64,000 nt of DNA from an uncultured Candidatus Binatia bacterium (GCA_965242525.1 OZ251459.1:3392001-3456000); one strand, 5' to 3'; positions 22,644 to 38,226 are shown, numbered from the stretch's first letter. Made by a program: numbers and translations. Notes: generated by a model from the sequence alone, not told the origin.

Positions 22644-23324
<681 letters not shown>

Positions 23325-23447
23325 CGGCAACGAGGGGCGGCCGTTCCCCGGCGAAGTTCCTCGGCGAACTCGATGCTTGCCGGGGCAGTGGCCCGGACCG
23401 ACAGATTACGCGCTTCGACGATGGTGAGGGAAGGACAAGGCATCCAC

Positions 23448-24179
23448 ATGGAAATGAGAGGGACAGCCCGCCTGTGTGTTCCGGCCGTAGTGCTTTTGCT
23501 CATGGCGATGGGCGTGTTTTCGGCGCCGGCGCAAACCTTTGAGGAGGCCGTGGCGGCATATGAGCGCGGCGACTACGCCGCGGCCTATGGCGGGTTCCAG
23601 GTGCACGCGGAGCAGGGCGATGCAAGCGCTCAGTACAATCTCGGTTACATGTACCTCAATGGGGAGGGTGTGCCCCAAGACTATGCAGGGGCGGCGAAGT
23701 GGTTTCGCCGGGCCGCAGATCAGGCCTTTGCCCCTGCTCAGCTCCATCTTGGGACCATGTACCATAAGGGGCAGGGAGTACCCCAGGACTATGCCGAGGC
23801 AGCAAAGTGGTTTCACCAAGCTGCGGATCAGGGCTTTGGCCCCGCTCAGTTCCTTCTCGGATTCATGTACGACAATGGGCAGGGAGTGCCCCAGGACTAT
23901 ACGGAGGCGGCAAAGTGGTATCGCCAGGCTGCGGATCGGGGCGATGCTTCCGCTCAACTCAACCTCGGGCTCATGTACCACAAGGGGCAGGGCGTTCCGC
24001 AAGACTTCGTTCAGGCATACCTGTGGTTGAACCTTTCCGCATCCCGAAGATCGGATAAGAGGGTGCAGGAGTTGCGCGATGAAGTAGCAGCCCGTCTGAC
24101 CCCGGCAGACCTCGCCCTGGCCCAGCGGTTGTCGCGGGAGTGGCAGCCCAAAGCAGAAGGGACTTATCCAGCAAACTAG
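23448..24179 (+). CDS. Secreted Sel1-like repeat protein
   Basis: Signal peptide plus four 'AQxxLGxMYxxGQGVPQDYxEAAKW(F/Y)xxAADxG' repeats. Start codon uncertain (23373-23454). Confidence 0.9.
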   Translation: MEMRGTARLCVPAVVLLLMAMGVFSAPAQTFEEAVAAYERGDYAAAYGGFQVHAEQGDASAQYNLGYMYLNGEGVPQDYAGAAKWFRRAADQAFAPAQLHLGTMYHKGQGVPQDYAEAAKWFHQAADQGFGPAQFLLGFMYDNGQGVPQDYTEAAKWYRQAADRGDASAQLNLGLMYHKGQGVPQDFVQAYLWLNLSASRRSDKRVQELRDEVAARLTPADLALAQRLSREWQPKAEGTYPAN

Positions 24180-24281
24180 TCAAGCGAGGTGTATCGTGAG
24201 GCTTGCCCCTCCGCCTGATACGACAACGGAGAAGGTGCTCAACAAGATTGCCGAGTTGGAATAAAGGAAAAGGAGACAAAC

Positions 24282-24704
24282 ATGGGCAACAAGTTTATCA
24301 GGGGCTGCTTGCTTGTCGTGATGGTGGCGAGTTTGGGCGGGTGTGCGTCGTCGCCAAAAAGTATTAGTGCGAGTTACGTTTCGCCTCTCCAATACCAATC
24401 ATATGACTGTGACCAGATTGCCCAAGAGATGCACCGGATCACCCGCAAGGTTCAGGAAGTGACCGGAGTTCAATCGAGTAAGGCATCGGGGGATGCCGTA
24501 GCTGTGACGGCATCTCTACTGTTCTGGCCGGCCCTCTTCTTTCTGGCGGCGGGAGAAGACAAGAGCGCTGAATTGGCGCGTCTCAAAGGCGAGGCTGAAG
24601 CGTTGGAACAGGCTGCTGTACAGAAGAAGTGCACGGCGTTGCTTGATCAGATCGAGCGTGAACGAAAGGCTGCGGAAAAGAAAGCTGCCGAAACCACGGA
24701 GTAG
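24282..24704 (+). CDS. Putative lipoprotein
   Basis: AGGAG RBS; lipobox 'LGGC'; 'YVSPLQYQSYDCDQI', one hydrophobic segment and a C-terminal coiled coil. Confidence 0.8.
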   Translation: MGNKFIRGCLLVVMVASLGGCASSPKSISASYVSPLQYQSYDCDQIAQEMHRITRKVQEVTGVQSSKASGDAVAVTASLLFWPALFFLAAGEDKSAELARLKGEAEALEQAAVQKKCTALLDQIERERKAAEKKAAETTE

Positions 24705-24857
24705 CCCATTGAGTAGTAGGCTTTTTCCACTTTTGAGTGAGTCAAAGTGAGCGGGCAGTGGAGCCGGTGGTTAGGCCTGACGGGAACGGGCTAACGGCGC
24801 CGATATGTGGCCAAGCAGCAAGATTGTTGTGGGAAACAATACTCGTGAGGTAGGGGT

Positions 24858-26018
24858 ATGGAGATGAACATCGCCAGAAAACAGGGGGCCCAGTTAGCGC
24901 TATGGGCAGATGACCCTGGCGCCGAGGTCCCGGAGTATCTGTCGCGCCAGTTGATCACCTACATCGGCAACAAGCGCGCCCTGCTCGGACACATCGCCGC
25001 AGCGGTCGAACAGGTCAAGCAGCGTCTTGGAAAGACACGTCTCCGGATATTCGACGCCTTCAGCGGCTCCGGGGTGGTCTCCCGATATTTCAAGGCGCAT
25101 GCCGCCCTGCTGATCAGCAACGACATCGAAGAATACGCCGCCGCAACCGCACGCTGTTACCTGAGCAACAGGAGCGGAGTTGACCTTGAGGCGGTAACCG
25201 AGGCCGCCGCCGACCTGAACCAAAGGGTGGATACCGAGAAGTTTCCAACGGGCTTCATCGAAGAATTGTACTCGCCCAAAGACGAAAAGCGCATCACCAG
25301 GGAGGACCGCGTCTTCTACACGAAGAGCAACGCACAGCGGCTGGACAACTACCGCCGCCTCATAGACACACTACCGGCTGAAATGCAGGATATGCTCCTT
25401 GGGCCTCTGCTCAGCAGCGCGTCCGTTCACGCCAACACAGCAGGGGTCTTCAAGGGCTTCTACAAGAACCGAGAGACCCGGATCGGCCAATTCGGTGGCA
25501 GCGGAGCTGATGCCCTGGTTCGTATCACAGGAAAAATCAGGCTCGAAGCGCCCGTGCTCAGCAACTTCGAGTGTGACTATCAAGTGCTGCAAGAGGACGC
25601 CAACGCCGTTGCGCCTCGCCTGAAGGATCTCGACCTTGCATACATAGACCCGCCCTATAATCAACATCCCTACGGATCGAACTATTTCATGCTCAACCTG
25701 CTCCTGCGATACCAATGTCCCCGGCGCGTCAGCCAGGTTTCCGGAATACCGACCGACTGGCAGCGCTCCGGGTACAACGTGAAAGCCAGATCCCTTCCTC
25801 TCCTGAAAGATCTTCTCGGAAAGCTCGATGCGCGGTTTCTTCTCATATCGTTCAACAACGAAGGCTTTATTCCCACTCACCAGATGAGCGCGATGTTGTC
25901 CGAGTTGGGTTCCCTGGACGTCATAGAGACGCCGTACAACGCTTTCCGTGGCAGCCGGAACCTCAACAACCGTCCCGTCCATGTCACCGAACAGCTATTT
26001 CTGGTGGAACGGAGGTAA
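24858..26018 (+). CDS. N6-adenine DNA methyltransferase (D12/alpha class), with no intact REase adjacent
   Basis: 'YIGNKR', motif I 'DAFSGSG', 'ISNDIE', motif IV 'YIDPPY', 'SFNNEG'. Confidence 0.92.
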   Translation: MEMNIARKQGAQLALWADDPGAEVPEYLSRQLITYIGNKRALLGHIAAAVEQVKQRLGKTRLRIFDAFSGSGVVSRYFKAHAALLISNDIEEYAAATARCYLSNRSGVDLEAVTEAAADLNQRVDTEKFPTGFIEELYSPKDEKRITREDRVFYTKSNAQRLDNYRRLIDTLPAEMQDMLLGPLLSSASVHANTAGVFKGFYKNRETRIGQFGGSGADALVRITGKIRLEAPVLSNFECDYQVLQEDANAVAPRLKDLDLAYIDPPYNQHPYGSNYFMLNLLLRYQCPRRVSQVSGIPTDWQRSGYNVKARSLPLLKDLLGKLDARFLLISFNNEGFIPTHQMSAMLSELGSLDVIETPYNAFRGSRNLNNRPVHVTEQLFLVERR

Positions 26019-26237
26019 CGTCGGTTGGCACGAAAGCATCCATTAGGCGAGCAGCGCGTTACGCTGACCGAACGGTTCCCCACACTGGACGTCAGCGTGA
26101 CCTGGGCGCGCACGCTGCCAAGGCAGATGGCGCGTGAGACCGCCCGCATCGGCCAAGGCGATGCGCCGATCCTGCGGGAACTCGGTCGATCCTTCCGCAA
26201 CCGGGAACCACGCCGGGATGTACAGGTGACCAGCAGC

Positions 26238-26407
26238 TTGGGCAGCGTCGGGGTGAGTTGCCCGGCCGTCCAGGAGCCTGCACCGCGCGAAGACGAGCAA
26301 CGTAGCTGACGGCAACGAGGGTCGTCTGTTCCCCGGCGAACTTGATGCTTGCCGGGGCAGGGTCCGTACTGATAGATTACGCGCTTCGACGATGGTGAGG
26401 GAAGGAC
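26238..26407 (+). repeat. msrA 3' end plus downstream region, copy 2
   Basis: Encodes 'LGSVGVSCPAVQEPAPREDEQRS*' versus the msrA end '[23 protein letters not shown]'. Confidence 0.9.
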
Positions 26408-26519
26408 GGCGCTTCAGGAATTCGTGTGGGTGTCCTTACCAAAGTAAGGAGATGGCGAGACAGGCACGAACCCATCGAGATTTGCCTGTTTGACGTGGAT
26501 TCTCGCCACAAGGGACGAC

Positions 26520-28142
26520 ATGATGGACAAAACGATAGCCACATCTCTTGCCGATGCGCTTCAGTCCGTTCTTGCACCTAGGCCGGGAGAAGTGCGCGAA
26601 CGCGAGATTTTGCGAGTCGCAGCGACCCTCGGTGGAGACAATAGCGAACAAAATGCCGAGAAGGCACGGAAAGAAGTCCTCAAGTGGGCGCAGAAGCGAG
26701 TGGGCGACCGCTTGCCGGAAACCGCCTGGAAGTACGATGAGTTCGAGAAGCACATGGGCGGGCGCGATTGCAAGGCCGTCCGTATCGCCAGTGAAGCCAC
26801 AGACTTGTGGGCAATTCGAGCTAATGATCCCGACAAGAACATTGCACAGAGGGTTTGGACAACGGAGGTCGTCATTGGCTTCGCAAGAGCGCAAAAAACA
26901 CCTATCGGCTTCGGACTTCGTTTGCTCGTAAGCTCACCCGAAGCAGATTTGCAGAGCGTGGAGCGAGCCGTCCCCGGATTGGTGTGGCAGTTGGCGAACG
27001 AATGCGGGCTTTATCAGGGAGCCAGACAGTTGTCCCCTGAACCGTGGATCGTCGAATCGCGTGAAGACATGCTTCGCCTGATTGGTGTCCTCCTTGATCC
27101 TTTGCGTAGAGAGCCTGTTTTTGTTCTGAGTATCCCAAGAGACGCGACTGACCTGCATGCGCCTCTCATAGACCCCGGGCCTTTAGCACGTGCGATGCTC
27201 GGGCTTGCCAAGGTCGTAGTACTACCCGCCCGATCCACTTGGGCTTTGACGGATCAACTGGGCAAGCGACTATCTGTGTTTAATGGCGCGGTTCGAGCGT
27301 ATTTGCCCGGATTTACCGAAGACGCTGAACCATACGACCACGACCTTTTCCTTCAAGAGCACCTGTTGAATCCAGCGAAGGTCCACCAAGTGTCCGTCGC
27401 TCTGCGGCAGATGGCGGCTGCAGAAAGCCTGCGGAGGCTTCGTTTGGGCCAGGACGTATTGTCCTTCTCCAGGGTGCAGGCGCATAGCGTCGCAATTTCG
27501 AGCGCTCGCCTTGAGCATACCGAAAACAAGCTGATTACGGAAATCGAAAACCTTAGAGAATCTCTGAAGAAGTCGGAAGACGAACAGGAGTGGTTCGCTG
27601 AACAACATGACCGTGCAGAGAAGATGGCAAAAGATTTACAGCACAAATTGAGTCATGCCAATCTTCGTATTCAACAGCTCACAGAGCAACTGGCGACTCA
27701 TGACGACAAGCCTGATTCCAATCTTTCGCTCCCGGACACATGGGAAGATTTCTCGGAATGGTGTGATACTCACTTGGACGGCCGGGTGCAGTTGTCGTCG
27801 CGCGCTCGTCGGGAAGTCAAAGCACCGTTGTTCGAAGATATCGGAATGGCAGCCCGATGTCTGCTCTGGCTTGCCAACGATTATCGCCAAGGGCGCCTGG
27901 AGAGCAACACCTCCGATCCTCGGGGTTCGATTGAAGGCGGATTGAAGAACGAGCGTTGCGGCGCCGATCAATTCAAGTTCAACTGGCAGGGAAAACAGAT
28001 CGACGTCGTGTGGCACATCAAGAACGGTGGCAACACACGAGATCCGGCACGTTGCCTTCGCATTTATTATTTTTGGGACGACGGGAACCAGCGAGTCGTG
28101 ATAGCCTCCATGCCGGCTCACATCCCCACTGACGCGACGTGA
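26520..28142 (+). CDS. Hypothetical multidomain protein: N-terminal domain, coiled coil, C-terminal RelE/ParE-like domain (putative defence protein)
   Basis: AT-richer than the flanks; heptad region 'LITEIENLRESLKK...LQHKLSHANLRIQQL'; C-terminus 'WHIKNGG...CLRIYYFWDD..QRVVIASMPAH'. The domain call is tentative. Confidence 0.65.
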   Translation: MMDKTIATSLADALQSVLAPRPGEVREREILRVAATLGGDNSEQNAEKARKEVLKWAQKRVGDRLPETAWKYDEFEKHMGGRDCKAVRIASEATDLWAIRANDPDKNIAQRVWTTEVVIGFARAQKTPIGFGLRLLVSSPEADLQSVERAVPGLVWQLANECGLYQGARQLSPEPWIVESREDMLRLIGVLLDPLRREPVFVLSIPRDATDLHAPLIDPGPLARAMLGLAKVVVLPARSTWALTDQLGKRLSVFNGAVRAYLPGFTEDAEPYDHDLFLQEHLLNPAKVHQVSVALRQMAAAESLRRLRLGQDVLSFSRVQAHSVAISSARLEHTENKLITEIENLRESLKKSEDEQEWFAEQHDRAEKMAKDLQHKLSHANLRIQQLTEQLATHDDKPDSNLSLPDTWEDFSEWCDTHLDGRVQLSSRARREVKAPLFEDIGMAARCLLWLANDYRQGRLESNTSDPRGSIEGGLKNERCGADQFKFNWQGKQIDVVWHIKNGGNTRDPARCLRIYYFWDDGNQRVVIASMPAHIPTDAT

Positions 28143-28369
28143 AAGCCGTCCCATAACCGACAGTCACCACGCTGGTGCTTACTACGTAATGATTGTGCAA
28201 AGGAAGGCTCTTCAGTTCCACGGAAATGATGCCGGCGGTACCCATTCGCACCTTCGGGGCCATGAGTTCATTCCGTGGAGGTCTTGGACCGTGAAAGAAC
28301 ATCGAACCAAGGTAACGTATGCCAAACTCTCCGTAGAGAGGATCCGTACCCTGGAATGGGAGGCATTAT

Positions 28370-29356
28370 CTACTCGATCTTCTCGTTGGTTTCTGTCTCT
28401 GCCTGGCTTGGATCCTTACGTTTGGAAGCAACAGATTTTTCGAGTTTTTCTTCCAGGTCGGCCATTCTCTCCTGTAAGGTTTCAACCTCTCTTTTTAGTC
28501 CAATAACACGCTCGGCCGTCGTTGCCTGTTTTGCTGTCATGTCACCTGTGATATTGCTGACATTCAGCACGATAGTAGCGATACCCACTGCTACAGTCAC
28601 GGATATAGTAACTGCACCACCAATGGTGTAGTTCCGCGAACGCTTAGCGCTCCTTGCTGCTTGTTCAGCGCTTTCCCTTGATTCACGTAGTGCCCTGGGA
28701 ATGGAGCTTCGGATTTCAGGTTGCTTAAGATAAGTATCAAGTGTTTTTCTATTTTTGTCCTTCGGAAAAGGTGTGTATATGCCCTGGTAGGATTCTGTTG
28801 AACGATTGATGTTTACCCAATGGTCGTTAGGAGAAATTTTCGTAAACTCTAGCCATATCAATTTTTCTTCGTAGCAGAATTTGTATTTGTTGGTAGTGAG
28901 ATTATGCAACGGAATCAGAATGCGACCTTTGAACCCCGGGTCAACAATGGGTCCCGTACCGAGAAGCAATCCCCGATGGACATTTGTAATTGTGAGATTG
29001 AACCTTACCGCCATATAGTCCGGAAGGCGAAACTTTTCTCTGGTCGTGACGAAGGCAATCGAATTCGGTTCCAAAACAAAAGAACCTTTTTTACTCAGGT
29101 CAACGGACTGCTTCTTCCCGTCATCCTCCCAATAGATACAATCTGCCCCCACGCTTGCCTCGTATGAGGCCGGTTTGAGCTTCTCCGAATCGAAAGGATA
29201 GATCATCCCCGTAGTACGGACATAGTCGTAGATGTCGGCGGAATTGAGCAACGCCGCCGGAATATTCGGGAACGGATCACGCGACTTGTACTCGTTGAAC
29301 CGAGCCCCCGCGTCATCGTCATCGCGTAGGGGATACCGTTCTTGCTGAGTCGTCAT
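28370..29356 (-). CDS. dCTP deaminase/dUTPase-fold protein with degenerate deaminase site, C-terminal TM helix and coiled coil
   Basis: 'LLNSADI', 'LKPASYE', 'FVLEPNSIAFVTTREKFRLPDY', 'IVDPGFKGRILIPLHN'; hydrophobic 'IGGAVTISVTVAVGIATIVL'. Confidence 0.8.
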   Translation of the reverse strand: MTTQQERYPLRDDDDAGARFNEYKSRDPFPNIPAALLNSADIYDYVRTTGMIYPFDSEKLKPASYEASVGADCIYWEDDGKKQSVDLSKKGSFVLEPNSIAFVTTREKFRLPDYMAVRFNLTITNVHRGLLLGTGPIVDPGFKGRILIPLHNLTTNKYKFCYEEKLIWLEFTKISPNDHWVNINRSTESYQGIYTPFPKDKNRKTLDTYLKQPEIRSSIPRALRESRESAEQAARSAKRSRNYTIGGAVTISVTVAVGIATIVLNVSNITGDMTAKQATTAERVIGLKREVETLQERMADLEEKLEKSVASKRKDPSQAETETNEKIE

Positions 29357-29360
29357 GAGG

Positions 29361-30410
29361 CTACCGCGTGGCTACCGCGTGCGCGATGTGCTCTTGTCTT
29401 GGATACAAGGACTTGGACCCCGGTCCGACCCCCACCCAATCCACGGATACGCCGATGGACTGCTCGACCGCTTTGACGAACTCCTCCGCCTTGTCCGTGA
29501 CTCGTTCCTCTTCCCGGCAGCGCCAATCCACGTAATCGAGATGGTTGAGGACCACCCGGCTAGGCGAGTTCGCCTGGATCGCCTGCAGCACGACCTCGGC
29601 GTCGAACCTTGCGACTCGACGGATTCGTCGGGTCACACTGGTCTTCTCCACTATGCGCCCATCGGCACCCGACTCCCGGGCCACGGTGTTCCAGTCCATT
29701 TCCCGCGGAAGCGGGCCGGAGTTTCCCGACACCCGTATGGGGAAGGCCCGGAGCACCAGGATCACATCGTCCACGTCGAGAGGACTCAGGCCGACCTCCG
29801 AAAGGAACCCTGCGGCCGTGGTGTCACGTGACGTCACGTGTGGATAATGATCCGAATGAAGCAGGGACAAACCAAAGCCCTGGGTCCCTTCGACGATCAC
29901 CCGGCGGTTCTGCTGCAAGCAACGCCGCGCCATTTCCCTGACAGGCTGGAGGTAGGGTTGCAACCGTGGGTCGTCCGCGGCCCTCTTCGACCGGCCTTGG
30001 CGCTCTATGCGCCGTATGACCGCGCCGCCGGTACCGGTCAGGGTGGAGCCGATGAGAGATCCCAACCCTGCCTTCCGCTCCCTTTCCCTGTCTTCCTCGG
30101 TAATCACGAAGGCGTTCGGGTCCACGCTCACTCGGTCACATGCGAGGGAGGGGTTGCTCAGTTCCTCCAGGAAGACCTCCACGTCGATGTAGGAGCCGGC
30201 CCCTATGGCGCAGTGGATTCCGGGGATGAGGCAGGCGGTGGGCAGGCAGCGGAAGACGTGGCGTCGCCCGTCTTCGACCACCGTGTGGCCGGAGTTGGGG
30301 CCTCCGGTTCGGATGGCAACGGCCGCTTTTAGCTGTCCGGCCAGGAAGTGGGCGACCTTGCCCTTCCCCTCCGAGCCGTACTGACCGCCGACCACGATGG
30401 AAACCGGCAT
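29361..30410 (-). CDS. Adenylosuccinate-synthetase homologue with PurZ/PurZ0-type signature (candidate 2-amino-dAMP-succinate synthetase)
   Basis: 'GGQYGSEGKGK' (Ser for the PurA Asp), 'GGPNSGHT', 'IGSTLTG', 'EGTQGFGL', 'TSRD', 'FPIRVSGNSG', 'EKTSVTRRIRRV', 'NHLD', 'GVGP'; short archaeal/phage-type length of 349 aa. Confidence 0.85.
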   Translation of the reverse strand: MPVSIVVGGQYGSEGKGKVAHFLAGQLKAAVAIRTGGPNSGHTVVEDGRRHVFRCLPTACLIPGIHCAIGAGSYIDVEVFLEELSNPSLACDRVSVDPNAFVITEEDRERERKAGLGSLIGSTLTGTGGAVIRRIERQGRSKRAADDPRLQPYLQPVREMARRCLQQNRRVIVEGTQGFGLSLLHSDHYPHVTSRDTTAAGFLSEVGLSPLDVDDVILVLRAFPIRVSGNSGPLPREMDWNTVARESGADGRIVEKTSVTRRIRRVARFDAEVVLQAIQANSPSRVVLNHLDYVDWRCREEERVTDKAEEFVKAVEQSIGVSVDWVGVGPGSKSLYPRQEHIAHAVATR

Positions 30411-30420
30411 GGCAGGACCT

Positions 30421-32511
30421 TTACACGAAGTTCAGTCGATGCTCAAGGCGTTCCAGCACTTCGGCACAGAGGTCGTCCTTGGTGCGGTCGTTTGCCGCCC
30501 GGACGTGCGCGAGTTCGCCGAGCATGGCGACGCCCCGTTCCGAGAGGTGTCGGAGGGACTGCTCCCGACCGGAGCCCTTTGCGGACGCCTTCGCGGGCGA
30601 AGGCCCGTCCTGCCTTCCATCCTCACGGGTCAGGTGCACGTGGACGAAGGCCGGACCGTAGGTCTCGACCAGGAAGGCATGGTCTTCGGGGAAGCGGAGT
30701 CCGTCGATGACGACGCTGCCCTCCGAGGGCAAACGCTCCTTCAACCGGCGGCAGAGCCAGCGCTGTCCGGGGGCCTCGTGGATCTGCGCCCCCAGGTCCT
30801 GGAGCGCCTTTTGGCTTACGGGACGCCCGTCCTTCCGCAGTTCGTCTTCGAGCACTTGGCTGAACCTTCCGTAGGCGTAGCCCCGGCTTTCCAGGAAACG
30901 GGCAACGGTGGTCTTGCCGGCGCCAGTCTCGCCGCTCAAACCCGCCACGCGCCGGTCCAGCCAGTCCCCGGGCTGGCGGGCAAGGTCCGGCACGATGAGG
31001 TATTCTTCCTCGTCGTTGCCCAGGGCCTCGAACTTTCCCGTCCAGAAGAACAGGCCCACCAGGGCGGACGTGATGGCGTCTAGTTCGTCGTGGGACAGCT
31101 TGTCCGAAGCGATGGGTCCGCGGACCCCGAAATCGAGCAGGGCCCGGGTCAGGTGCTCCAGGCCCTTCTTCTTCCGGGGGATCCCCAGGATGTCCTGGGC
31201 GGCGCCGGGGTAGCTTTCGATGACCGGGATGCCGAGCTTCCGAAAGTGCGTCGCCAGACGGATGCCCCGGGCGGTGAGGCCCTGCATGTTCAGGATCAGC
31301 GTGGGATAGACGTGGACGCCCCGCGCCCGGAGCAGTCGCTCGCATTCCCGGGTGATGCCGAACTCCTCCCTGGCCGGGTCGTCGTCGGTGGTGCGGGTGC
31401 GCCCGTACGGCAGGGACAGGGGGGAGTCGATGGACACCATGTGCGGCCGGGCGCAGACGGTCTCGCTGATGAGGTCCAGGTCGCTGCCGATGCGCTGCGT
31501 CAGGGCGTAGTCGTCCGTGAGCAGGCACCACCCGGAGGCCCGGGCCTCCGACCCGGTCAGGTCGATGCCCACCACGCGCAGCGGCCGTTCGCGCACGGCC
31601 CCGGTCAACTGCCCGTAGGTGGTGCGGGGACCCTTCGCGCCCCGGTAGGGCGGCACGTAGATCCGATGCCCGGCCTCGGCCTTTCGGCTGGCGGCCCATG
31701 CCAGCCTCCGGGGTTTGGCCAGGAACCGGGGCGGCGGCGTGCGGAGGACTTCGGCCACCCCGTCCGCGGCCTTGCGCCGGATGGCCTCGTCCAGGATCGC
31801 CTGCATGCCCACGATGTCCGCATGGTTGTATTCGATGAGGGTCTTGCAGGCCGCGTCGTCTCCCATCTGGTACTGGTACCAGAGCACCGGGGCCATGGCC
31901 CCGTCCACGTCGGCCACATGGCTTCGCCCCTCCACGCGGATGGACCGCTCGATGGCCTTCTGGTTGCCCACCAACCCCACGGACCGGCCGAAGAACCGCA
32001 GGTCCACGTGGGCCTCGGGGAGCTTCACGTCGGGGAACTCCCGCTCCATGAACTTGGTGTCGAACACCGAGCCGTTGAAGGTCACCAGGCAGGCGGCCCG
32101 GGACAGCAGGCGGGCCAGCGCCGCCTTGCTGCCGCCCCGGACGTGGCAGTAGTACTCGTCGGCCAGGCCGACGCCCACGATGGTGACGTAATCGTAGTAG
32201 ATGCTCAGGCCGGTGGTCTCCACGTCCAGGAACGCGGTGGACCGGGGCAGGGTCAGGGCGATGCGGTAATGCTCCCGCCGGGGCAGCCGACGGGCGAAGA
32301 AGTCCATGTCCCCCCGGGCCAGGGCGGCGCGGGATTCGGCCAGTTCGGACAGCAGGGCCGGGACCGACCCGGCCTCCCGGGGCCAGGGAAAGCCTGCCTG
32401 GGGGAAAGAGGCGCGTTCGAGGTCGTCCCAGGTGCGTATCCCCTGTTCCCAGAGCGCCCGCTCCTTCCTGGCCCCGATCCCCGGTAGGTGGATGAACGTG
32501 GATTCCAGCAC
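30421..32511 (-). CDS. Fusion protein: HhH + DEDD/RNase_H_2 (YprB-like) exonuclease + DUF429 RNase H-like nuclease + P-loop NMP-kinase-like domain
   Basis: 'HLPGIGARKE'; 'FLDVETTGL...TFNGSVFD...HVDL...YNHAD'; 'VGIDL...SIDSPL...RECE...IESYPGA...HDELDA'; 'GLSGETGAGKTT...VVIDGLRFPED'. Confidence 0.85.
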   Translation of the reverse strand: MLESTFIHLPGIGARKERALWEQGIRTWDDLERASFPQAGFPWPREAGSVPALLSELAESRAALARGDMDFFARRLPRREHYRIALTLPRSTAFLDVETTGLSIYYDYVTIVGVGLADEYYCHVRGGSKAALARLLSRAACLVTFNGSVFDTKFMEREFPDVKLPEAHVDLRFFGRSVGLVGNQKAIERSIRVEGRSHVADVDGAMAPVLWYQYQMGDDAACKTLIEYNHADIVGMQAILDEAIRRKAADGVAEVLRTPPPRFLAKPRRLAWAASRKAEAGHRIYVPPYRGAKGPRTTYGQLTGAVRERPLRVVGIDLTGSEARASGWCLLTDDYALTQRIGSDLDLISETVCARPHMVSIDSPLSLPYGRTRTTDDDPAREEFGITRECERLLRARGVHVYPTLILNMQGLTARGIRLATHFRKLGIPVIESYPGAAQDILGIPRKKKGLEHLTRALLDFGVRGPIASDKLSHDELDAITSALVGLFFWTGKFEALGNDEEEYLIVPDLARQPGDWLDRRVAGLSGETGAGKTTVARFLESRGYAYGRFSQVLEDELRKDGRPVSQKALQDLGAQIHEAPGQRWLCRRLKERLPSEGSVVIDGLRFPEDHAFLVETYGPAFVHVHLTREDGRQDGPSPAKASAKGSGREQSLRHLSERGVAMLGELAHVRAANDRTKDDLCAEVLERLEHRLNFV

Positions 32512-32528
32512 ACCCGGCTATTCCTCGG

Positions 32529-33053
32529 CTATTCCTTCAGGAGGCGTTGTATCTCGCTCTCCATCTCCGCGTAGCCCCCCTCGCCGAAACGGGTGTAACG
32601 GACCACGCCGCCCTTATCGACGATGTGCAGCGTGGGCCAGTAGCGGGTGCCGTAGCGTTTCCAGGTGGCGAAGTCGTTGTCCAGCGCCACCGGAAACTCC
32701 ACGCCCAGCCGCTTGCAAGCCTTCCGGACCTTGTCCGGGTCGTGTTCCCAGGCGAACTCCGGCGAGTGGATGCCCACCACCAGGAAGCCCTGGGGTCCAT
32801 ATTTCTCGTGCCAGCCCGCCAACTGCGGGATCGTGTTGGTGCAGTTGATTCAGCCGTAGGTCCAGAACTCGATGAGGACCACCTTCCCCCGCAGGTCCTT
32901 CAGGCGCAACGGCTCCGAGTTGATCCACGTCTCGTTGGTGAACTCCGGCGCCTCCTTGCCCAGCAGGGAGGCCCCGGCCCCGCCGGCAGCCGCCAGCGCC
33001 AGGAACCCCGCAAGGGCCGCAAGCGCGAGTATCCGCATCCCGGATTGCTTCAT
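32529..33053 (-). CDS. Exported thioredoxin/redoxin (DipZ-C-like), predicted selenoprotein with UxxC
   Basis: Track ORFs 32850..33053 and 32529..32822 are in one frame: 'LIEFWTYG-TGA-INCTNTIPQL...GIHSPEF...DNDF..W...YWP'. The TGA sits at the first Cys of CxxC. Confidence 0.88.
32815..32829 (-). promoter_or_regulatory. Candidate bacterial SECIS apical hairpin
   Basis: mRNA CCCGC-AGUUG-GCGGG begins 20 nt 3' of the UGA, with GU at the 5' side of the loop. Confidence 0.6.
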
Positions 33054-33318
33054 GTGTCCGTACCTCCGACGCCATTATGCCGATCTTGCGGCACGGAAAC
33101 AATCCCCATGCGCGGCCCGACCCGGCGCGGGCGGGGGCCATGCGGGTCCTCGGGCAGACCGGGGGCCGCGGAGGCCGGAAGGCGCTGGAAACCCCGTATG
33201 CCTTGCTGCATAATGATCGACCGCGCGGCGAGAAAGGAGAGGGCCGTTTCCCCCTGACGGGTCGCCGGTCCACCCGCGGTCGGCCCCGCGTGCGGCGGTC
33301 CCTGGAAGGAAAGTACGA

Positions 33319-34227
33319 ATGCTCTACGACTATGTGGCCCTGCCGGACCGCCCGCGGCTGCGGTGGCCCGGGGGCGCGCGGGTGGCGCTCGTCTTCACCA
33401 TCAACGTCGAGTACTGGGAGATGACCCGGGAGGGCGCGGAGCCGCTCTATCCCGGAGGTCCGGCGACCATCCCCCACGTGCTTCCGGGCAACGTCCCCGA
33501 CTACGCCAACTGGACTTGGCGGGAGTACGGCCAGCGCGTGGGGGTCTGGCGCATCATCGACGCGTTCGACAAGGCGGGCGTACCGGCCACCTGCACCATG
33601 AACGCGCTGACCGGCATCGAGCGCCGCCGCATCATCGACGCCGCCAACGAACGCGGCTGGGAGATCCTCGCCCACAACTACGCCCAGAACGACGTGCTGA
33701 CCGGCTACGCCAACCGCCCGGACGAGGAGCGCGAGGTGATCCGCCGGACCCTGGACGTCTATGCCGACGTGGTGGGCCGACCGGCCCGGGGCTGGCTGTC
33801 GTCGTCCCTCCGCAGCACCCACGAGACCCCGCACATCCTCAAGGAGCTCGGGCTGCTGTTCCAGTCGGACTACCTGAACGACGACCAGCCCTACCTGCTC
33901 CACACCCGCCACGGCCCCCTGGTGTGCATCCCCTATTCCAACGACGTGAACGACTTCGCCGTCTTCTCCCGGGGCGGACGGACCACGTCCCAGGCGCTGG
34001 AGCTCTTCGAGGAGCAGTTCGACCAACTCTACCTCGAAGGCGAAGAGACCGGACGCATCATGAACGTGGGCCTCCACCCCCACGTCATGGGCCAGGCATA
34101 CGCCGTCCGGGCCCTGCGCGAGTTCCTCGACTACGCCAAGAGCTTCGAGGGAGTGTGGTATCCCAAGCGCGAGGAGATGGCGGAATGGTACCTGGAGCAG
34201 CAGGGATCGGCACCGGGGCGCGGCTGA
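33319..34227 (+). CDS. Polysaccharide deacetylase family protein (PuuE-like)
   Basis: 'WPGGARVAL', 'EYGQRVGVWR', 'WEILAHNY', 'RGWLSS', 'DDQPY', 'IPYS...ND', 'GLHPHVMG'. Confidence 0.9.
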   Translation: MLYDYVALPDRPRLRWPGGARVALVFTINVEYWEMTREGAEPLYPGGPATIPHVLPGNVPDYANWTWREYGQRVGVWRIIDAFDKAGVPATCTMNALTGIERRRIIDAANERGWEILAHNYAQNDVLTGYANRPDEEREVIRRTLDVYADVVGRPARGWLSSSLRSTHETPHILKELGLLFQSDYLNDDQPYLLHTRHGPLVCIPYSNDVNDFAVFSRGGRTTSQALELFEEQFDQLYLEGEETGRIMNVGLHPHVMGQAYAVRALREFLDYAKSFEGVWYPKREEMAEWYLEQQGSAPGRG

Positions 34228-34264
34228 CGCCCGCGGGCGCCGGCCCGGCCCGCACGGAGGACGC

Positions 34265-34398
34265 ATGGAACCGTATCGAGTCGCGTTGATCCAGCAGCAG
34301 ACCCGGGTGATCGTGGAGCCGAAGCAGCGCAACCGGATCGTGGACGCAAGATCATCGACCGGCTGGTGCGAGAAGGAAGCCTGGTGAAGCCCGAATGA
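34265..34398 (+). pseudogene. Internally deleted gene relic (nitrilase/C-N hydrolase-like N-terminus joined out of frame to a C-terminus)
   Basis: GGAGG RBS + ATG 'MEPYRVALIQQQTRVIVEPKQRNRIV', then in another frame 'RKIIDRLVREGSLVKPE*', whose TGA overlaps the next ATG (ATGA). Confidence 0.55.
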
Positions 34399-35840
34399 GG
34401 CGGCGCGAAGCCGACGTGGTGGTGGTGGGCTACGGCGGCGCCGGCGCGGCCGCGGCCATCGCCGCGTGCGACCGCGGCGCCCGGGTCCTCATCATCGAGA
34501 AGGAGGCCCATGGGGGCGGCAACACCCGGCTCTCGTCCGGCTCGGTGCGGACCTTCGGCGCAGTGGAGCGGGCGGTGGAGCACGTGGCGTTCCTGTGCGG
34601 CGGCGCCACCGACCCGGAGGTCATCGAAGCCCTGGTGCGGGAGAGCGGCCACAACGAGTCGTGGCTGCGCTCCCTCGGGGGCGAGGTGCGCGTGGACCCG
34701 CTGCACGCCCCGCCCGCAAGCTATCCCATCTATCCTTCGGGTGCGGCGTCACCCGGGCAGCCGGGAGCGGACGGGGTGGGACCGCGGCTGCGGGTGGCCG
34801 GCCCGGCCACCGCCAACGGGCGCGACCTGTGGGCGCTGCTGGCCCGGAACGTGGAGGCGCGGCGCATCCCCGTGCTCTGCCAAAGCCCGGCCGCGCGGCT
34901 CTTGCGCGGTCGGGACGGCGCGGTCAACGGGGTGCTCGTCCGGGACCCCGGAGGCGACCTCCGCATCCGCGCCCGCAAGGCCGTGGTGCTCGCCTGCGGC
35001 GGCTACGAACGGGACCCCGACATGCAGGTCCAGTTCCTGGGCCAACGGTACGAGACCCTGGGGGCGCCGGGCCACACCGGGGACGGCGTGCGCATGGCCG
35101 CGGACGCGGGCGCGTCCCTGTGGCACATGAACGCGGTGGCCGCGGGCTTCGGCTACCGGGTGGACGGGTTCGACTGCGCCGTCATCCACGCCATGCCGGA
35201 CCCGGGGTTCATCTACGTGGACCGAAGGGCGCGCCGTTTCGTGGACGAGACCGCCATGGACGCCCACGCGGTGGGCTCGCTGGTGGCGGAACTGGACATG
35301 GAGACCATGGAGCGGCCCCGGGTGCCGTCCTTCGTGGTCTTCGACGAGCGCACGCGGCTGGCCGGCCCGGTGGGCAACACCGAACGGGGCGCCGCTGCCG
35401 AGCTGTATCGGTGGAGCGAAGACAACGCCGCAGAGGTCGCCCGGGGCTGGATCCGCACGGGCGCGACCCCGGGGGACTTGGCCGACGCTCTGGGACTCGA
35501 CCCGGGAGCCCTCGAACGGACCGTCCGGGAATACAACTTGGCGTGCGCCCGGGGGCGCGACCCGGACCTGGGGCGCGCACCGGCCACCCTGCGGCCGCTG
35601 GAGCGCAGTCCGTTCTACGGCGCCGCGCTGTGGCCCTCCCTGTTCAACACCCAGGGCGGCCCCCGGCGCAACGCCCGGGCCCAGGTGCTGGACGCCTGGG
35701 GCAAGCCCATCCGGGGGTTGTACGCCGCGGGCGAACTCGGCTCCCTGTGGTCCCGGAACTACCCGGGCGCGGGCAACCTGACCGAGGCCCTGGCTTTCGG
35801 CCGCATCGCCGGCCGCAACGCCGCGTCCGAGGGCGGGTGA
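34395..35840 (+). CDS. FAD-binding oxidoreductase (FAD_binding_2; fumarate reductase/ketosteroid dehydrogenase-like)
   Basis: 'DVVVVGYGGAG', 'GGNTRLSSG', 'LACGGY', 'TGDG', 'NTQGGP', 'GLYAAGE', 'FGRIAG'. Confidence 0.9.
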   Translation: MRRREADVVVVGYGGAGAAAAIAACDRGARVLIIEKEAHGGGNTRLSSGSVRTFGAVERAVEHVAFLCGGATDPEVIEALVRESGHNESWLRSLGGEVRVDPLHAPPASYPIYPSGAASPGQPGADGVGPRLRVAGPATANGRDLWALLARNVEARRIPVLCQSPAARLLRGRDGAVNGVLVRDPGGDLRIRARKAVVLACGGYERDPDMQVQFLGQRYETLGAPGHTGDGVRMAADAGASLWHMNAVAAGFGYRVDGFDCAVIHAMPDPGFIYVDRRARRFVDETAMDAHAVGSLVAELDMETMERPRVPSFVVFDERTRLAGPVGNTERGAAAELYRWSEDNAAEVARGWIRTGATPGDLADALGLDPGALERTVREYNLACARGRDPDLGRAPATLRPLERSPFYGAALWPSLFNTQGGPRRNARAQVLDAWGKPIRGLYAAGELGSLWSRNYPGAGNLTEALAFGRIAGRNAASEGG

Positions 35841-36054
35841 CGGCACAGGAACCCGGGCCGCGATTGGCCGGCGCTTGCAGGCGGCGACCGCGGGCGGTAC
35901 GGTAATGACGGGTCCTTCGACTTCGCTTCGCTACGCTCAGGACGAACGGGGAGCGTTGTACGGAGTTTCCCTGATCTTCGGGTCGTTGTAAGAGTTTCCC
36001 CTGATCTTCGATCCGGTCATCGGTCGGTCACACCCCTGAGGAAAGGAAAACACC

Positions 36055-36597
36055 ATGCACACCATCGGCAATATCGGAAGCAGGGTCAAGGCGGCAGGGA
36101 CGGCCCTTGCGCTGGGTCTCGTGGCGGTCTGCGGGCTTGGCGCATCCGCCGCGGACGCGGCCTCGCTGGAGGACCGGAACCGGGCCGTGGTCCTGCGCTA
36201 CATGCAGGAGGTCATCAACGAACGCAAGCTGGACGTGCTGGACGAGGTCATGGTGGAGGACTGGATCGCCCACAACCCCACCGAACCCAACGGCAGGGAG
36301 AACCTGAAGAAGTTCTTCGCGGGCATGTTCCAGCAGTTCCCCGAGATCCACGCCGACGTGAAGCGGGTCATCGCCGAAGGCGACCTGGTGGTGGTGCACG
36401 CGCACTACACCGGACGCAAGCAGGACCGGGGCAACGACTGGGCCAAAGGCTCCGGAGCGAACGTGGACATCTTCCGCCTGGTGGACGGCAAGATCGTGGA
36501 GCACTGGGACGTGGGCCAGCGCCCCATCCCGGAAAAGTCCGTCAACGGCAACAGCATGTTCGACGGCGGCGCGCTGTACAACTACCGCCGCCCATGA
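36055..36597 (+). CDS. Exported SnoaL/NTF2-like protein
   Basis: Signal peptide; 'NRAVV', 'IAEGDLVVVH', 'VDIFRLVDGKIVEHWD'. Confidence 0.88.
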   Translation: MHTIGNIGSRVKAAGTALALGLVAVCGLGASAADAASLEDRNRAVVLRYMQEVINERKLDVLDEVMVEDWIAHNPTEPNGRENLKKFFAGMFQQFPEIHADVKRVIAEGDLVVVHAHYTGRKQDRGNDWAKGSGANVDIFRLVDGKIVEHWDVGQRPIPEKSVNGNSMFDGGALYNYRRP

Positions 36598-36738
36598 AGC
36601 GCCGCCCGCTCCGCGAACGGGGGACACGAGGGACTACAACTATCCCCCGTTCGTCCTGAGCGTAGCGTAGCGAAGTCGAAGGACGCGCTTTCCCATAGGG
36701 AGAAGGAAATCAGGAGAGCCGAGCCGCAAGGAGCCGCG

Positions 36739-38226
36739 TTGGAATCCATCGAATTCGTTGACACGACCCTGCGTGACGGCCACCAGAGCCTGTGGGCCGA
36801 GTCCATGCGCACGGGCATGATGCTGGCGGTGGCGGACCGCATGGACCGGGCCGGCTTCCGGGGCATGGAGCTGATCTCCAGCTCCCACATCAAGAAATGC
36901 GTGCGGGAGCTGCGCGAGGACCCTTGGGAGCGTGTGCGGCTGGTGGCCGGGCGGATCCGGGAGACGCCGCTCCGGGTCATCATCGGCAGCCGCAACGGAT
37001 TCGAGCTCACGCCGGAATCCATACAGCGCATCTTCCTGGAGCGGATGGCGGCCAACGGCGTCCGCCAGGGCCGCATCTCCGACGAGTGGAACGACCCCGC
37101 GGGATGGCGCAAGACCGTGCGCATGGCCCGGGAAGCGGGGCTCGAACCCATCGTGAACATCATCTATTCCGTGTCTCCCAAGCACACCGACGAGTACTAC
37201 GCGGAGCGGGCGCGGCAGGCGGCCGCGCTGCCGGTGGCGCGGCTGTGCTTCAAGGACCCGGGGGGTCTGCTGACGCCGGAGCGTACCCGCGCGCTGACGC
37301 CGCTCATCAAGGAGCACGCCGGCGGCCTCCCGTTGGAGTTCCACACCCACTGCACCACCGGCCTGGGACCCCTGTGCTGCCTGGAGGCCGTCGAGCAGGG
37401 CGTGCGCATGGTCAACACCGCGCTGCCGCCCCTGGCCAACGGCTCGTCCAACCCGTCGCTGTTCAACGTCGCCGCCAACCTCCGGAGCCTGGGCTACGCC
37501 ACCGCGGTGGACGAGGACGCGCTGCGGCCCGTGTCCGAGTACTTCACCGCAGTGGCCCGCCGGGAAGGGCTGCCGGTGGGCGCGCCCGTGGAGTACGACT
37601 ACAACCAGTACCTGCACCAGGTGCCCGGGGGAATGATCTCGAACCTGCGCCACCAACTCGCGCGGGTGGGCCTCGGGGACCACATGGAAAGGGCCCTGGA
37701 AGAGGTCGTGCGGGTGCGGGAGGAACTGGGTTATCCCATCATGGTCACGCCCCTGTCCCAGTTCGTGGGAAGCCAGGCGGCCATCAACATCATCCTCGGA
37801 GAGCGCTACCGGGAGGTCACCGACCAGGTGATCCTCTACGCCCTGGGGCGCTGGGGCCGCGAAGGCAGCGACTCCATGGACCCGGACCTGAAGGACCGGA
37901 TCCTCTCGTCCCCGCGCGCCCGGGAACTGGCCGCGTGGCAGCCGCCGGAACCCACGGTCCGGGAGTTGCGGGCCAAGTACGGCGGCAGGTCCGACGAGGA
38001 GTTGCTGCTGCGGTACTTCCTCACGACGGACGAGATCGACGCCATGCGCGCCGCGGGCAGTCCCCGGGACTACCCCTTCGACGCCGCCACGTCCGCGCGC
38101 GCGGTAGAGCGGTTCGCCCGCCGGCAGGACTATTCGCACATCCGTGTCCGCAGCCGCGGCTTCGCCCTGAACCTGTCGCGGCAACCTCCCTCCGCGGAAA
38201 GTGGATTCCCGCTTTCGCGGGAATGA
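36739..38226 (+). CDS. Pyruvate/oxaloacetate carboxyltransferase (PycB/OadA-like, no biotinyl domain)
   Basis: 'DTTLRDGHQSL', 'EDPWER', 'FKDPGGLL', 'HTHCTTG', 'HQVPGGMISNL', 'GYPIMVTPLSQFVG'. Confidence 0.9.
   Translation: MESIEFVDTTLRDGHQSLWAESMRTGMMLAVADRMDRAGFRGMELISSSHIKKCVRELREDPWERVRLVAGRIRETPLRVIIGSRNGFELTPESIQRIFLERMAANGVRQGRISDEWNDPAGWRKTVRMAREAGLEPIVNIIYSVSPKHTDEYYAERARQAAALPVARLCFKDPGGLLTPERTRALTPLIKEHAGGLPLEFHTHCTTGLGPLCCLEAVEQGVRMVNTALPPLANGSSNPSLFNVAANLRSLGYATAVDEDALRPVSEYFTAVARREGLPVGAPVEYDYNQYLHQVPGGMISNLRHQLARVGLGDHMERALEEVVRVREELGYPIMVTPLSQFVGSQAAINIILGERYREVTDQVILYALGRWGREGSDSMDPDLKDRILSSPRARELAAWQPPEPTVRELRAKYGGRSDEELLLRYFLTTDEIDAMRAAGSPRDYPFDAATSARAVERFARRQDYSHIRVRSRGFALNLSRQPPSAESGFPLSRE

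Follow-up and report, generated by a model that had tools for sequence, protein, structure and literature searches.

Can a bacterial chromosome carry an anti-phage system built on the chemistry that some phages use to rewrite their DNA with 2-aminoadenine (Z)? The question is raised by three adjacent genes in a 64,000-nucleotide stretch of DNA (hereafter the window) from an uncultured Candidatus Binatia bacterium (GCA_965242525.1 OZ251459.1:3392001-3456000). They encode A, a fusion of a DNA-binding motif, two nuclease domains and a nucleoside-monophosphate (NMP) kinase; B, a short paralog of adenylosuccinate synthetase (PurA) of the PurZ type; and C, a protein with the dUTPase/Dcd fold and a predicted membrane anchor. 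All reports of PurZ chemistry so far concern phages that put 2-aminoadenine into their DNA; in the present case the cassette is cellular and has a PurZ-type enzyme as its fixed core. It is established that the cassette is accessory, horizontally mobile and selected as a unit. On the strength of the alignments described below, we also regard it as established that its enzyme-like domains keep their catalytic residues and that all of them point to DNA and deoxynucleotides. We believe that the cassette is probably a new nucleotide-based anti-phage system. The fuller reading, in which it is a self-contained mobile anti-phage cassette on PurZ-type chemistry and the whole chain runs from A through B and the kinases to C as a membrane effector, is plausible to us while falling short of likely.

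The sequence-only reading of this DNA had described three co-oriented genes, and the open reading frames (ORFs) called in the window lie exactly where it had placed them: A, B and C all read on the minus strand, with 10 nt between A and B and 4 nt between B and C (Table 1). Pfam also agrees with the domains it had assigned, namely RNase_H_2, DUF429 and a P-loop kinase in A, PF00709 in B and DCD in C.

The first thing to settle is whether the three genes belong together. Related loci were collected by a pattern scan with one genome per species, which gave 80 loci; B is present at 46-88% identity in 79 of them, and the remaining one (L083, 29% identical) was dropped from the counts. With tblastn, A is matched in 72 of the 79 loci and C likewise in 72. 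Strictly adjacent, co-oriented A-B-C is found in 57 of the 79, the rest being contig ends, frameshifts or real variants. The 79 loci span Binatia, Acidobacteriota, Cyanobacteria, Nitrosomonas, Desulfobacterota, Bacteroidota, Clostridia, Actinomycetota and others. Because these 57 loci come from many phyla and still keep the same adjacent order and orientation, the arrangement is far beyond chance, and the triad is the conserved unit that had been proposed from the window.

The three-gene description was incomplete in one respect. When the 724 other ORFs of the loci were clustered, one further conserved gene appeared: D, of about 200 residues, which follows C directly in 36 loci and is present in 31 of the 57 loci with A-B-C. 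D belongs to the deoxynucleoside-kinase (dNK) family (PF01712, 1e-30). The triad is thus real, and a fourth gene found in 36 other loci had been overlooked; it is absent from the window and from the whole genome (99% complete).

The variants help to show which parts are essential to the layout. A lacks its kinase domain in L029, L036, L047, L055, G043 and G110. In two Acidobacteriota loci (L014:9097-11226 and L025:9059-11185) C is replaced by a 709-residue AAA protein, whose AAA domain is IetA-like (PADLOC, 1e-17) and whose N-terminal 440 residues have no assigned family; a profile comparison of this protein with the C family found no relation (probability 0.04). Four Solirubrobacterales genomes carry B-C alone, and no A was found anywhere in them with this query, their completeness being unstated. 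Among the full-length representatives used for the tree of B there is one B-C fusion and there are 21 kinase-B fusions. As far as gene content can tell, B plus C is the minimal invariant core, the usual form is A-B-C, and often it is A-B-C-D.

Table 1. Positions of the cassette, its predicted domains and the surrounding island in the window (counted from its first nucleotide).
Feature	Position	Strand	Basis or remarks
Gene A	30421-32511	-	696 residues, GTG start; helix-hairpin-helix motif, 3'-5' exonuclease, DUF429 and NMP kinase fusion
Gene B	29361-30410	-	349 residues; PurZ-type short adenylosuccinate-synthetase (PurA) paralog
Gene C	28370-29356	-	328 residues; dUTPase/Dcd-fold protein, predicted membrane anchor
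A residues 1-40, putative helix-hairpin-helix DNA-binding motif	32392-32511	-	HHH_5 at residues 6-35, E 0.0024, under cut-off
A residues 88-250, predicted DEDDy-type 3'-5' exonuclease domain	31762-32250	-	PF13482, invariant residues, structure match 5mdn
A residues 311-505, DUF429, predicted RuvC-like RNase H fold	30997-31581	-	PF04250, invariant residues, structure match 4ld0
A residues 520-696, predicted NMP kinase domain	30424-30954	-	Walker A, structure matches 3lw7 and 1dek
C residues 30-176, predicted dUTPase/dCTP-deaminase-fold domain	28829-29269	-	Foldseek, Pfam
C residues ~245-268, single predicted transmembrane helix	28553-28624	-	19-residue window, mean Kyte-Doolittle 2.16
C residues ~278-312, C-terminal helical segment, predicted to form a coiled coil past the membrane	28421-28525	-	AlphaFold2 helix; topology inferred
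Accessory island with the cassette	23283-32524	.	~9.2 kb, between msrA and a conserved minus-strand gene
Sel1-repeat protein gene	23373-24179	+	msrA-side island end
140-residue ORF	24282-24704	+	No family match; msrA-side island end
Dam-like N6-adenine DNA methyltransferase	24858-26018	+	MethyltransfD12 3.8e-18 (Pfam); PADLOC MTase_II 5.2e-109
HEC-07 homolog, 550 residues, convergent with C	26490-28142	+	PADLOC HEC-07 1.4e-174; no Pfam match

What kind of synthetase is B? Pfam assigns it to PF00709 (1.7e-50); it has the short PurA fold with archaeal-type deletions and aligns end to end with Pyrococcus horikoshii PurA and with the PurZ0 of structure 7vf6. Its nearest solved structures are P. 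horikoshii PurA (194 bits), the PurZ0 of phage Archimedes (7vf6, 158 bits) and the PurZ of phiVC8 (132 bits). It falls below the cut-off of the housekeeping PurA model TIGR00184 (200.6 bits, cut-off 395.55) and of the NCBIfam archaeal short-PurA model (286 bits, cut-off 368). The sequence-only reading had left room for B to be the only purA-type gene of the organism. It is an extra paralog, because the genome (G000) has its own canonical purA elsewhere (G000:C1:1808535-1809791), with 608 bits on PF00709 and a GDEGKG motif.

The P-loop of B reads GSEGKG, and of 62 cassette orthologs 53 have Ser at position 13, 9 have Gly there and none has Asp. Asp13 has been reported in 99% of PurA; each of the 147 phage PurZ/PurZ0 has Ser at this position, and four archaeal relatives have either Ser or Gly (PMC12884076). 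All 62 orthologs share a two-residue insertion after an Arg-Val pair (G229 and N230 in B), which has the same length as in PurZ0 and is shorter than that of the S-2L and phiVC8 PurZ; an insertion after this conserved Arg-Val has been linked to exclusion of the 2'-OH, with the Val pushed towards C2' (PMC8342488). Thr257 is present in 61 of the 62, at a position where PurA has Gly, and in the same study Ser23 and Thr273 are the PurZ-specific substrate contacts (PMC8342488). The catalytic residues His42, Gln177 and Arg226 are retained throughout (62/62), as is the donor-base motif N-H-x-D, whose His is common to PurZ0. Since this motif keeps the Asp that PurA uses for guanine, we infer that GTP is the phosphate donor of B.

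A search of the full library with B returned 8860 relatives, with 760 representatives at E <1e-30. We counted the P-loop residue in 159 sequences (the 150 top representatives, B, seven reference phage proteins and the genome's own PurA) and found Ser in 129, Gly in 5, Asp in 4 and Leu in 1; the pattern was not matched by the other 20, most of which are fragments. A quick maximum likelihood tree of 154 rows (LG+G4, with Shimodaira-Hasegawa-like approximate likelihood ratio test (SH-aLRT) support only) puts all Ser-type sequences into a single clade (SH-aLRT 99), separate from the Asp-type short PurA and the genome's PurA. Three groups make up this clade. The first has 29 rows (SH-aLRT 97), 21 of them with an N-terminal kinase fusion; the second has 32 rows and contains phage PurZ and PurZ0; the third has 90 rows including B, with a core of 51 rows (SH-aLRT 98). 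In the kinase-fused PurZ-like clade (P0303, P0308, P0318, P0370 and others) the N-terminal domain is a nucleotide-kinase domain of the AAA_33/AAA_18 type.

By every residue test that we applied, then, B looks PurZ-like, and by neither score nor tree is it a member of phage PurZ or PurZ0. The earlier label of a PurZ0-like synthetase holds for the residue hallmarks and does not hold for membership, as B stands in a sister clade outside phage PurZ0. From the residues we think that B probably turns deoxyguanosine monophosphate (dGMP) into a succino-2-aminoadenine nucleotide (dSMP).

A has more than 3000 homologs with the same architecture of about 690 residues. Pfam finds PF13482 (RNase_H_2) at residues 93-242 (1e-23) and DUF429 (PF04250) at residues 315-502 (3e-5), and in the kinase region it finds P-loop kinase families including AAA_18 below cut-off. 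In an alignment of 53 homologs (mean 55% identity per column), the complete DEDDy set of the exonuclease is invariant (D96, E98, N146, D151, Y228, D232), as are an acidic/His cluster in DUF429 (D317, D362, H474, D475, E476, D478) and, in the kinase, the Walker A residues G527..G532-K533 together with an NMP-kinase-type D603-G604-x-R606. The AlphaFold2 model of A has a predicted local distance difference test score (pLDDT) of 88.6 and a predicted template modelling score (pTM) of 0.84. We compared the whole 696-residue model with representative structures, a search that barely probes residues 1-87 and 395-517. In the model, residues 88-243 resemble the exonuclease domain of a family B polymerase (5mdn; Z 14.1, root mean square deviation (rmsd) 2.5, 149 aligned), residues 311-505 resemble Thermus thermophilus RuvC (4ld0; Z 12.1, rmsd 2.8, 139 aligned) and residues 521-693 resemble an adenylate-kinase-related protein (3lw7; Z 19.1, rmsd 2.4, 165 aligned). 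The kinase also resembles the T4 deoxynucleoside-monophosphate kinase with dGMP (1dek, Z 13.3).

The first two structural assignments agree with Majorek et al. (PMC3985635), who count PF13482/COG3359 among the PolB-like 3'-5' exonucleases and assign DUF429 to the RuvC/YqgF clade; they also report fusions of DUF429 to NUDIX and RelA/SpoT domains. PADLOC v2.0.0 gives A weak, partial matches to PDC-S44 (the DUF429 part, 1.3e-6) and to 'dCTPase' (the kinase part, 2e-4), the latter reaching 1e-14 in a Clostridia variant of A. In Clostridia variants the exonuclease domain has been exchanged for HHH_8 plus PHP, with HHH_8 at the place of the helix-hairpin-helix motif, and DUF429 and the kinase are retained. 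Such an exchange of one DNA-end-binding 3'-5' exonuclease module for another is an argument that the N-terminal part of A is selected for degrading DNA. The theme of deoxynucleotides and DNA thus recurs in the exonuclease or HHH_8 plus PHP, in a kinase resembling the T4 deoxynucleoside-monophosphate kinase and in a D that belongs to the dNK family.

In C, Pfam finds PF22769 (DCD) at residues 37-171 (8e-11), and the Dcd model TIGR02274 gives 51.2 bits, below its cut-off of 92.8; the housekeeping dcd of the genome lies elsewhere (C1:4148502-4148984). The AlphaFold2 model has a pLDDT of 79.5, rising above 90 over most of residues 11-120. With Foldseek it matches the Mycobacterium tuberculosis bifunctional dCTP deaminase-dUTPase (2qlp, E 3e-12, TMt 0.79), a Thermococcus dUTPase (8y1w, rmsd 1.4 over 142 columns) and Escherichia coli Dcd (1xs4, E 9e-10), and a profile of 71 C homologs has archaeal dUTPases as its top match (8y1w, 2e-8). 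The deaminases have a catalytic Glu that follows the (V/I)D(P/A)G..G..(T)L motif (E. coli E138, Methanocaldococcus jannaschii E145). In the profile alignment this column is an invariant Pro149 in C (L-L-I-P-L-H) and Met in the dUTPase 8y1w, and the phosphate motif R-S-S-L-A-R of 8y1w aligns to a variable x-I-T-N-V-H stretch of C. The domain is under strong selection, because 36 columns are invariant among the 71 homologs.

A hydrophobic 19-residue segment, at about residues 245-270, lies past residue 180 in 69 of the 71 homologs, and the tail after the transmembrane segment has 40-110 residues and is helical in the model; in the source annotations, homologs of C are labelled as FtsB/SlyX/DivIVA-like coiled coils. 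The stretch I-R-S-S-I-P (215-220) is nearly invariant and leads into the membrane-entering helix, and by analogy it is possible that it is the counterpart of the mobile C-terminal arm of dUTPases. The sequence-only reading had called C a pseudo-deaminase with a membrane helix. The fold without the deaminase Glu and the conserved transmembrane helix bear this out, and the word 'pseudo-deaminase' turned out to be too strong, as the archaeal dUTPase relatives also lack the Glu. C may still be an enzyme, since its closest solved relatives are those archaeal dUTPases. A receptor-effector role for C is favored because the transmembrane helix and tail are conserved and the canonical catalytic motifs are lost alongside new invariant residues, and because C is replaced by the AAA protein in two loci and turns over faster than its partners. 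We also considered whether C resembles the dCTP deaminase that Tal et al. describe in defense and ruled this out, as that enzyme has a zinc cytidine deaminase (CDA) fold.

The faster turnover of C is seen in L005, where C is 61% identical to ours and A and B are each 81% identical, and C is also the fastest-diverging protein between Binatia copies. The GC content of A is 68.9% (0.89 at third codon positions (GC3), host-like), that of B is 64.2% and that of C is 47.5% (GC3 0.51). The operon is a compositional mosaic, and because C combines foreign GC content with faster divergence than A and B, these figures suggest that the C module was replaced recently.

A scan for promoters and terminators over 27900-32900 found nothing on the minus strand upstream of A. 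A starts 15 nt past the stop of an upstream minus-strand frame, so it may be transcribed by read-through from that gene. This upstream frame (32527-32822) has a thioredoxin-like C-terminus and differs from the long ORF called at 32614-34332, which has a GC3 of only 0.65 and no Pfam match; it could be a miscalled ORF or a gene with a frameshift.

How did the cassette get here? We aligned positions 18000-37000 of the window with five congeners. Four of them (G161, G129, G175 and G065) match the msrA region at about 22347-23281 and then match directly from about 32525 onward, so the island in between is absent at this site in four of five; the fifth (G029) shares the island without the gene at 26490-28142. 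The GC content of the island is 54-57%, against about 68%. The earlier reading had put the cassette at the edge of an island that also holds a DNA methyltransferase and a toxin-like protein. The island is indeed bounded at about 23283-32524, the methyltransferase matches MTase_II, and the toxin-like gene is a HEC-07 homolog. In bioRxiv 10.1101/2024.01.29.577857 HEC-07 is described as a RelE-domain single-gene system; nine Hma-embedded candidates were tested in E. coli, and HEC-07 is one of the seven that lowered plaquing. This gene is a separate insertion or loss, because it is missing in the otherwise shared island of G029. Having a HEC-07 homolog and MTase_II within the same island favors a defense role for the cassette. 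The claim that the window has no phage structural, DatZ, MazZ or polymerase genes stands for the 18 ORFs between 18 and 42 kb that were scanned with Pfam.

Across the class, A is matched at E up to 1e-20 in 30 of 201 genomes. Full-length A occurs only in three of the 201 (G000, G029 and G065); G043 and G110 match residues ~80-512, the kinase-less form, and the remaining matches are a stand-alone exonuclease or DUF429 only. The copy of A in G065, from the same genus, is only 49% identical and lies at another site, and we therefore think that the sequences point to an independent acquisition of the cassette there. At the A-side junction of our island a 10-bp word, GGCTATTCCT, is tandemly doubled (32516-32536). 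We found no target-site duplication at the island ends, as GGCTATTCCT is not repeated at the other end and its three matches in the window are within chance.

Farther out, an element of about 60 bp at ~35909-35971 and ~36644-36703 flanks a 199-residue ORF (36028-36627). Dozens of copies of this element, 91-98% identical and in both orientations, occur across the G029 chromosome, which gives it the look of a dispersed repeat of the repetitive extragenic palindromic (REP) type or of a miniature inverted-repeat transposable element (MITE).

A relative of one domain of A has turned up beside a signaling enzyme. On the Dyadobacter chenhuakuii plasmid NZ_CP099631.1 (L110:4432-6594), a stand-alone DUF429 that is 54% identical to that of A lies directly downstream of a DACNG-DACNH-DAC gene. 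Proteins built in this way (DS-2C) are described as defense-island diadenylate cyclases with c-di-AMP as their product (bioRxiv 10.64898/2026.08.10.743927). The two genes may be a two-gene nucleotide-signaling unit, and this one case, though single, ties the DUF429 subfamily of A to nucleotide-based conflict systems.

Put together, these pieces suggest the following chain. A would bind DNA through its helix-hairpin-helix motif and degrade DNA with free ends, using the DEDDy exonuclease and the RuvC-like DUF429, to deoxynucleoside monophosphates (dNMPs); DNA breakdown driven by the phage itself may add to the supply. B would make dSMP from dGMP as phage PurZ and PurZ0 do, to judge by the conservation of its residues for catalysis and specificity. 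The kinase domain of A would then raise this product, or the dZMP made from it by host PurB, to the di- or triphosphate, and in loci with D the dNK-family kinase encoded there would assist. Finally, the predicted cytoplasmic dUTPase-fold trimer of C would bind the non-canonical deoxynucleoside triphosphate (dNTP) and, through its C-terminal arm and single transmembrane helix, perturb the membrane so that the infected cell stops (abortive infection), much as single-transmembrane ligand-gated effectors of other systems act.

Several observations weigh against this chain, and they do not all touch the same step. B scores 233.9 bits on the NCBIfam PurZ model NF038379, below the cut-off of 300, and in the tree it is not nested within phage PurZ or PurZ0, so its substrate could differ from theirs. 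In C, the Asp139 of V-D-P-G (D139-P140-G141) is invariant, and the protein may be a hydrolase and not a receptor. The B-C fusion and the form with only B and C fit consecutive enzymes at least as well as they fit a synthase and its receptor (compare phage DutZ or MazZ with PurZ), and since the latter form has no dedicated kinase or nuclease, the steps that we assign to A, the degradation and the phosphorylation, are therefore not essential. Three putative viral IMG/VR contigs carry close homologs of B, 54-55% identical (L099:8001-9035, L097:6264-7253 and L098:2325-3314); these are nested among the cassette B sequences, on contigs without A, C or D. Neither B nor C has a family match in PADLOC v2.0.0 at E up to 0.1, which leaves both without an independent defense score. 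We surveyed the two nearest non-cassette genes on each side (256 proteins) and scanned the first 150, from loci L004-L050; these fall into 97 Pfam families, none with more than three proteins, so the cassette has no conserved genomic context, in keeping with its mobility. The flanks include restriction-modification methyltransferases and specificity subunits, MADS, TniQ and PDC-S02, some of which speak for a defense context, and we claim no enrichment as there is no baseline; many others are housekeeping genes (gyrase, ALAD, topoisomerase). On one of the viral contigs (L099), the B homolog adjoins sugar epimerase and methyltransferase genes, and there is a weak terminase-like match.

The alternative that fares best keeps the chemistry of B and changes the role of C. 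C would be a membrane-tethered dNTP pyrophosphatase like DutZ or MazZ, making dGMP from dGTP and perhaps removing dATP; B would convert the dGMP to dSMP, and host PurB with the kinases of A and D would carry it on to dZTP, so that dGTP is drained and the pool fills with 2-aminoadenine nucleotides, whose incorporation into replicating phage DNA would cripple its expression or packaging. There is a phage precedent: in 98 of 98 PurZ0 phage genomes PurZ0 is paired with DutZ, a protein of the dUTPase fold whose products are dAMP and dGMP (PMC12884076), and the S-2L Z-cluster is toxic in E. coli and places Z in its DNA (PMC8342488). A minimal core of B and C and a B-C fusion are what one would expect of consecutive enzymes, two kinases and kinase-B fusions suit a route to the triphosphate, and the invariant Asp139 in C goes with closest sequence relatives that are true archaeal dUTPases. 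However, one would not expect an enzyme that acts on a soluble pool to have a conserved transmembrane helix (69 of 71 homologs) and a predicted extracytoplasmic coiled coil. C has also not kept the Ser-Ser-x-x-Arg motif with which Dcd and dUTPase bind phosphate, and an AAA ATPase takes the place of C in two loci. This explanation also leaves it unexplained how the cell prevents poisoning itself. We consider poisoning of the dNTP pool to be about as viable as the signaling model, and as a statement about this cassette it is possible, if on the unlikely side.

A second alternative is that B has another substrate or product. Starting from GMP, XMP or a modified purine nucleotide, it would make another N6-succinyl- or amino-purine, to serve as a conflict metabolite or in a nucleoside natural product. 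The place of B outside the characterized PurZ and PurZ0 clades, in a sister clade of 90 rows, would allow this, as would its scores below both NCBIfam cut-offs, the Gly in place of Ser at position 13 in 9 of 62 orthologs and the sheer size of the mostly uncharacterized Ser-type clade with its 760 representatives. The Arg-Val pair and two-residue insertion argue the other way, being linked to 2'-OH exclusion and shared with PurZ0 in all 62 orthologs, and so do the partners of B, which are oriented to DNA and deoxynucleotides (an exonuclease or PHP, a dNK-family kinase, a dUTPase fold). Neither the ORF clusters nor the flanks of the related loci contain conserved biosynthetic tailoring genes. 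We think that this alternative is unlikely.

It is more unlikely still that the cassette has nothing to do with defense and is an accessory module for deoxynucleotide salvage or DNA repair, recycling DNA that is taken up or damaged at the membrane. An exonuclease, kinases and a membrane anchor could suit the recycling of incoming DNA, many flanking genes are housekeeping genes, and Majorek et al. (PMC3985635) consider DUF429 genes unlikely to be mobile. Against it stand the patchy distribution (full-length A in 3 of the 201 genomes of the class, with a 49%-identical second lineage in the same genus) and the clean 9.2-kb indel, which the cassette shares with a member of a tested defense gene family (HEC-07). 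Ser13 argues against ordinary AMP or dAMP synthesis, and the genome already has purA and dcd. We find it very improbable that the cassette was left behind by, or travels with, a mobile element or phage whose own genome is made with Z, as in PurZ0 phages: the B subfamily on three putative viral contigs, nested among cassette B sequences, and a pairing that mirrors PurZ0 with DutZ would fit, but among 50,697 phage records A has no match and C has weak domain matches only (to Dcd/Dut domains of few phages), the viral contigs lack the other cassette genes, the island has no polymerase, integrase or structural genes, and the cassette sits in varied chromosomal sites.

If bacteria themselves, like phages, run a PurZ-type pathway here, nucleotide-based immunity would gain a new enzyme family, with the adenylosuccinate-synthetase fold, and a new receptor fold. 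The cassette would also suggest that phage PurZ and the cassette enzyme have been exchanged between hosts and viruses. As a defense of any kind, it would bring new chemistry for making a signal or poison and a new effector architecture to bacterial immunity, and the Ser-type PurA radiation, which is large and mostly uncharacterized, would be reframed. Metagenomes contain thousands of related proteins, and horizontal transfer has carried the cassette into at least a dozen phyla. The locus turns the synthesis of Z-nucleotides by cells into a testable question, and the cassette enzymes could help in making modified deoxynucleotides. That it is the first cellular Z-nucleotide pathway, with Z or N6-succino-Z deoxynucleotides made upon infection from the products of DNA breakdown and serving as a messenger for the C receptor or as a poison base, is a suggestion that we make tentatively and hold to be rather doubtful.

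How does the cassette compare with what is known? By its scores, clades and motifs it belongs neither to the phage PurZ modules nor to the named deoxynucleotide-based defense systems: B falls outside PurZ by score and by clade, C falls outside Dcd by score and by the missing Glu, and all of the PADLOC models fail. The sequence-only reading had recognized no named system either, in line with PADLOC-DB v2.0.0, which has no model for B or C and gives A partial, weak matches only. We found no description of the cassette in the open-access and bioRxiv literature, supplements aside. Supplementary Fig. S8 of PMC12884076 is a tree with 298 prokaryotic PurA homologs, 52 of them outside the E. coli PurA group, and this tree may already show bacterial Ser-type sequences.

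The archaeal short PurA (P. horikoshii; 2d7u, 5k7x) is the best solved-structure match of B and has the same short architecture. Unlike B, it has GDEGKG with Asp13, lacks the two-residue insertion, has Gly at the position of Thr257 and is a housekeeping enzyme in its organism. The defensive dCTP deaminase/dGTPase work (Tal et al., bioRxiv 10.1101/2021.04.26.441389) shares with the cassette a kinase domain and the theme of deoxynucleotide substrates, and the kinase domain is needed for defense by the deaminase. That enzyme differs in coming without a synthetase, nuclease or transmembrane protein, and its zinc CDA fold contrasts with the Dcd/dUTPase fold of C.

A, B and C contain no CD-NTase, pyrimidine cyclase or TIR domain by Pfam and PADLOC, so the cassette is not of the CBASS, Pycsar or Thoeris type. 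Kongming is reportedly a deoxynucleotide-signal defense based on dITP. The cassette resembles systems of the Kongming type in being small and island-borne, with a proposed nucleotide-modifying enzyme, kinase steps and a membrane effector. Kongming, Hailong, Clover and Panoptes are named together as deoxynucleotide-based defense systems in the introduction of a preprint. As far as that introduction describes them, the cassette is unlike all four in having an enzyme of the adenylosuccinate-synthetase fold and a dUTPase/Dcd candidate receptor.

Nearer relatives are found among phages. With the PurZ-MazZ-DatZ Z-cluster (S-2L, phiVC8, SH-Ab 15497) the cassette would share PurZ chemistry and the coupling of a synthetase to a dNTP-handling protein. 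Unlike PurZ, which has the ATP-type N-F-x-N/Q, B keeps the guanine-type Asp in N-H-x-D, and the island of the cassette has no MazG or HD genes. The closest likeness is to the phage pair PurZ0 and DutZ of the Gordonia and Arthrobacter phages Ghobes, Archimedes and Wayne. Both have a short PurA-type synthetase with Ser for Asp13, the same two-residue insertion and the His of the donor motif, both have a partner of the dUTPase superfamily, and reliance on host PurB is proposed for the cassette as well. The cassette departs from this pair in that B belongs to a separate clade and is at most 37% identical to any phage homolog, and in that C has the Dcd/archaeal-dUTPase type of fold with a transmembrane helix and a coiled coil, in contrast to the soluble classical Dut. 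It comes without DmtZ and without a Z-selective polymerase, and it is chromosomal and cellular, with a nuclease-kinase fusion that has no counterpart among the phage records searched.

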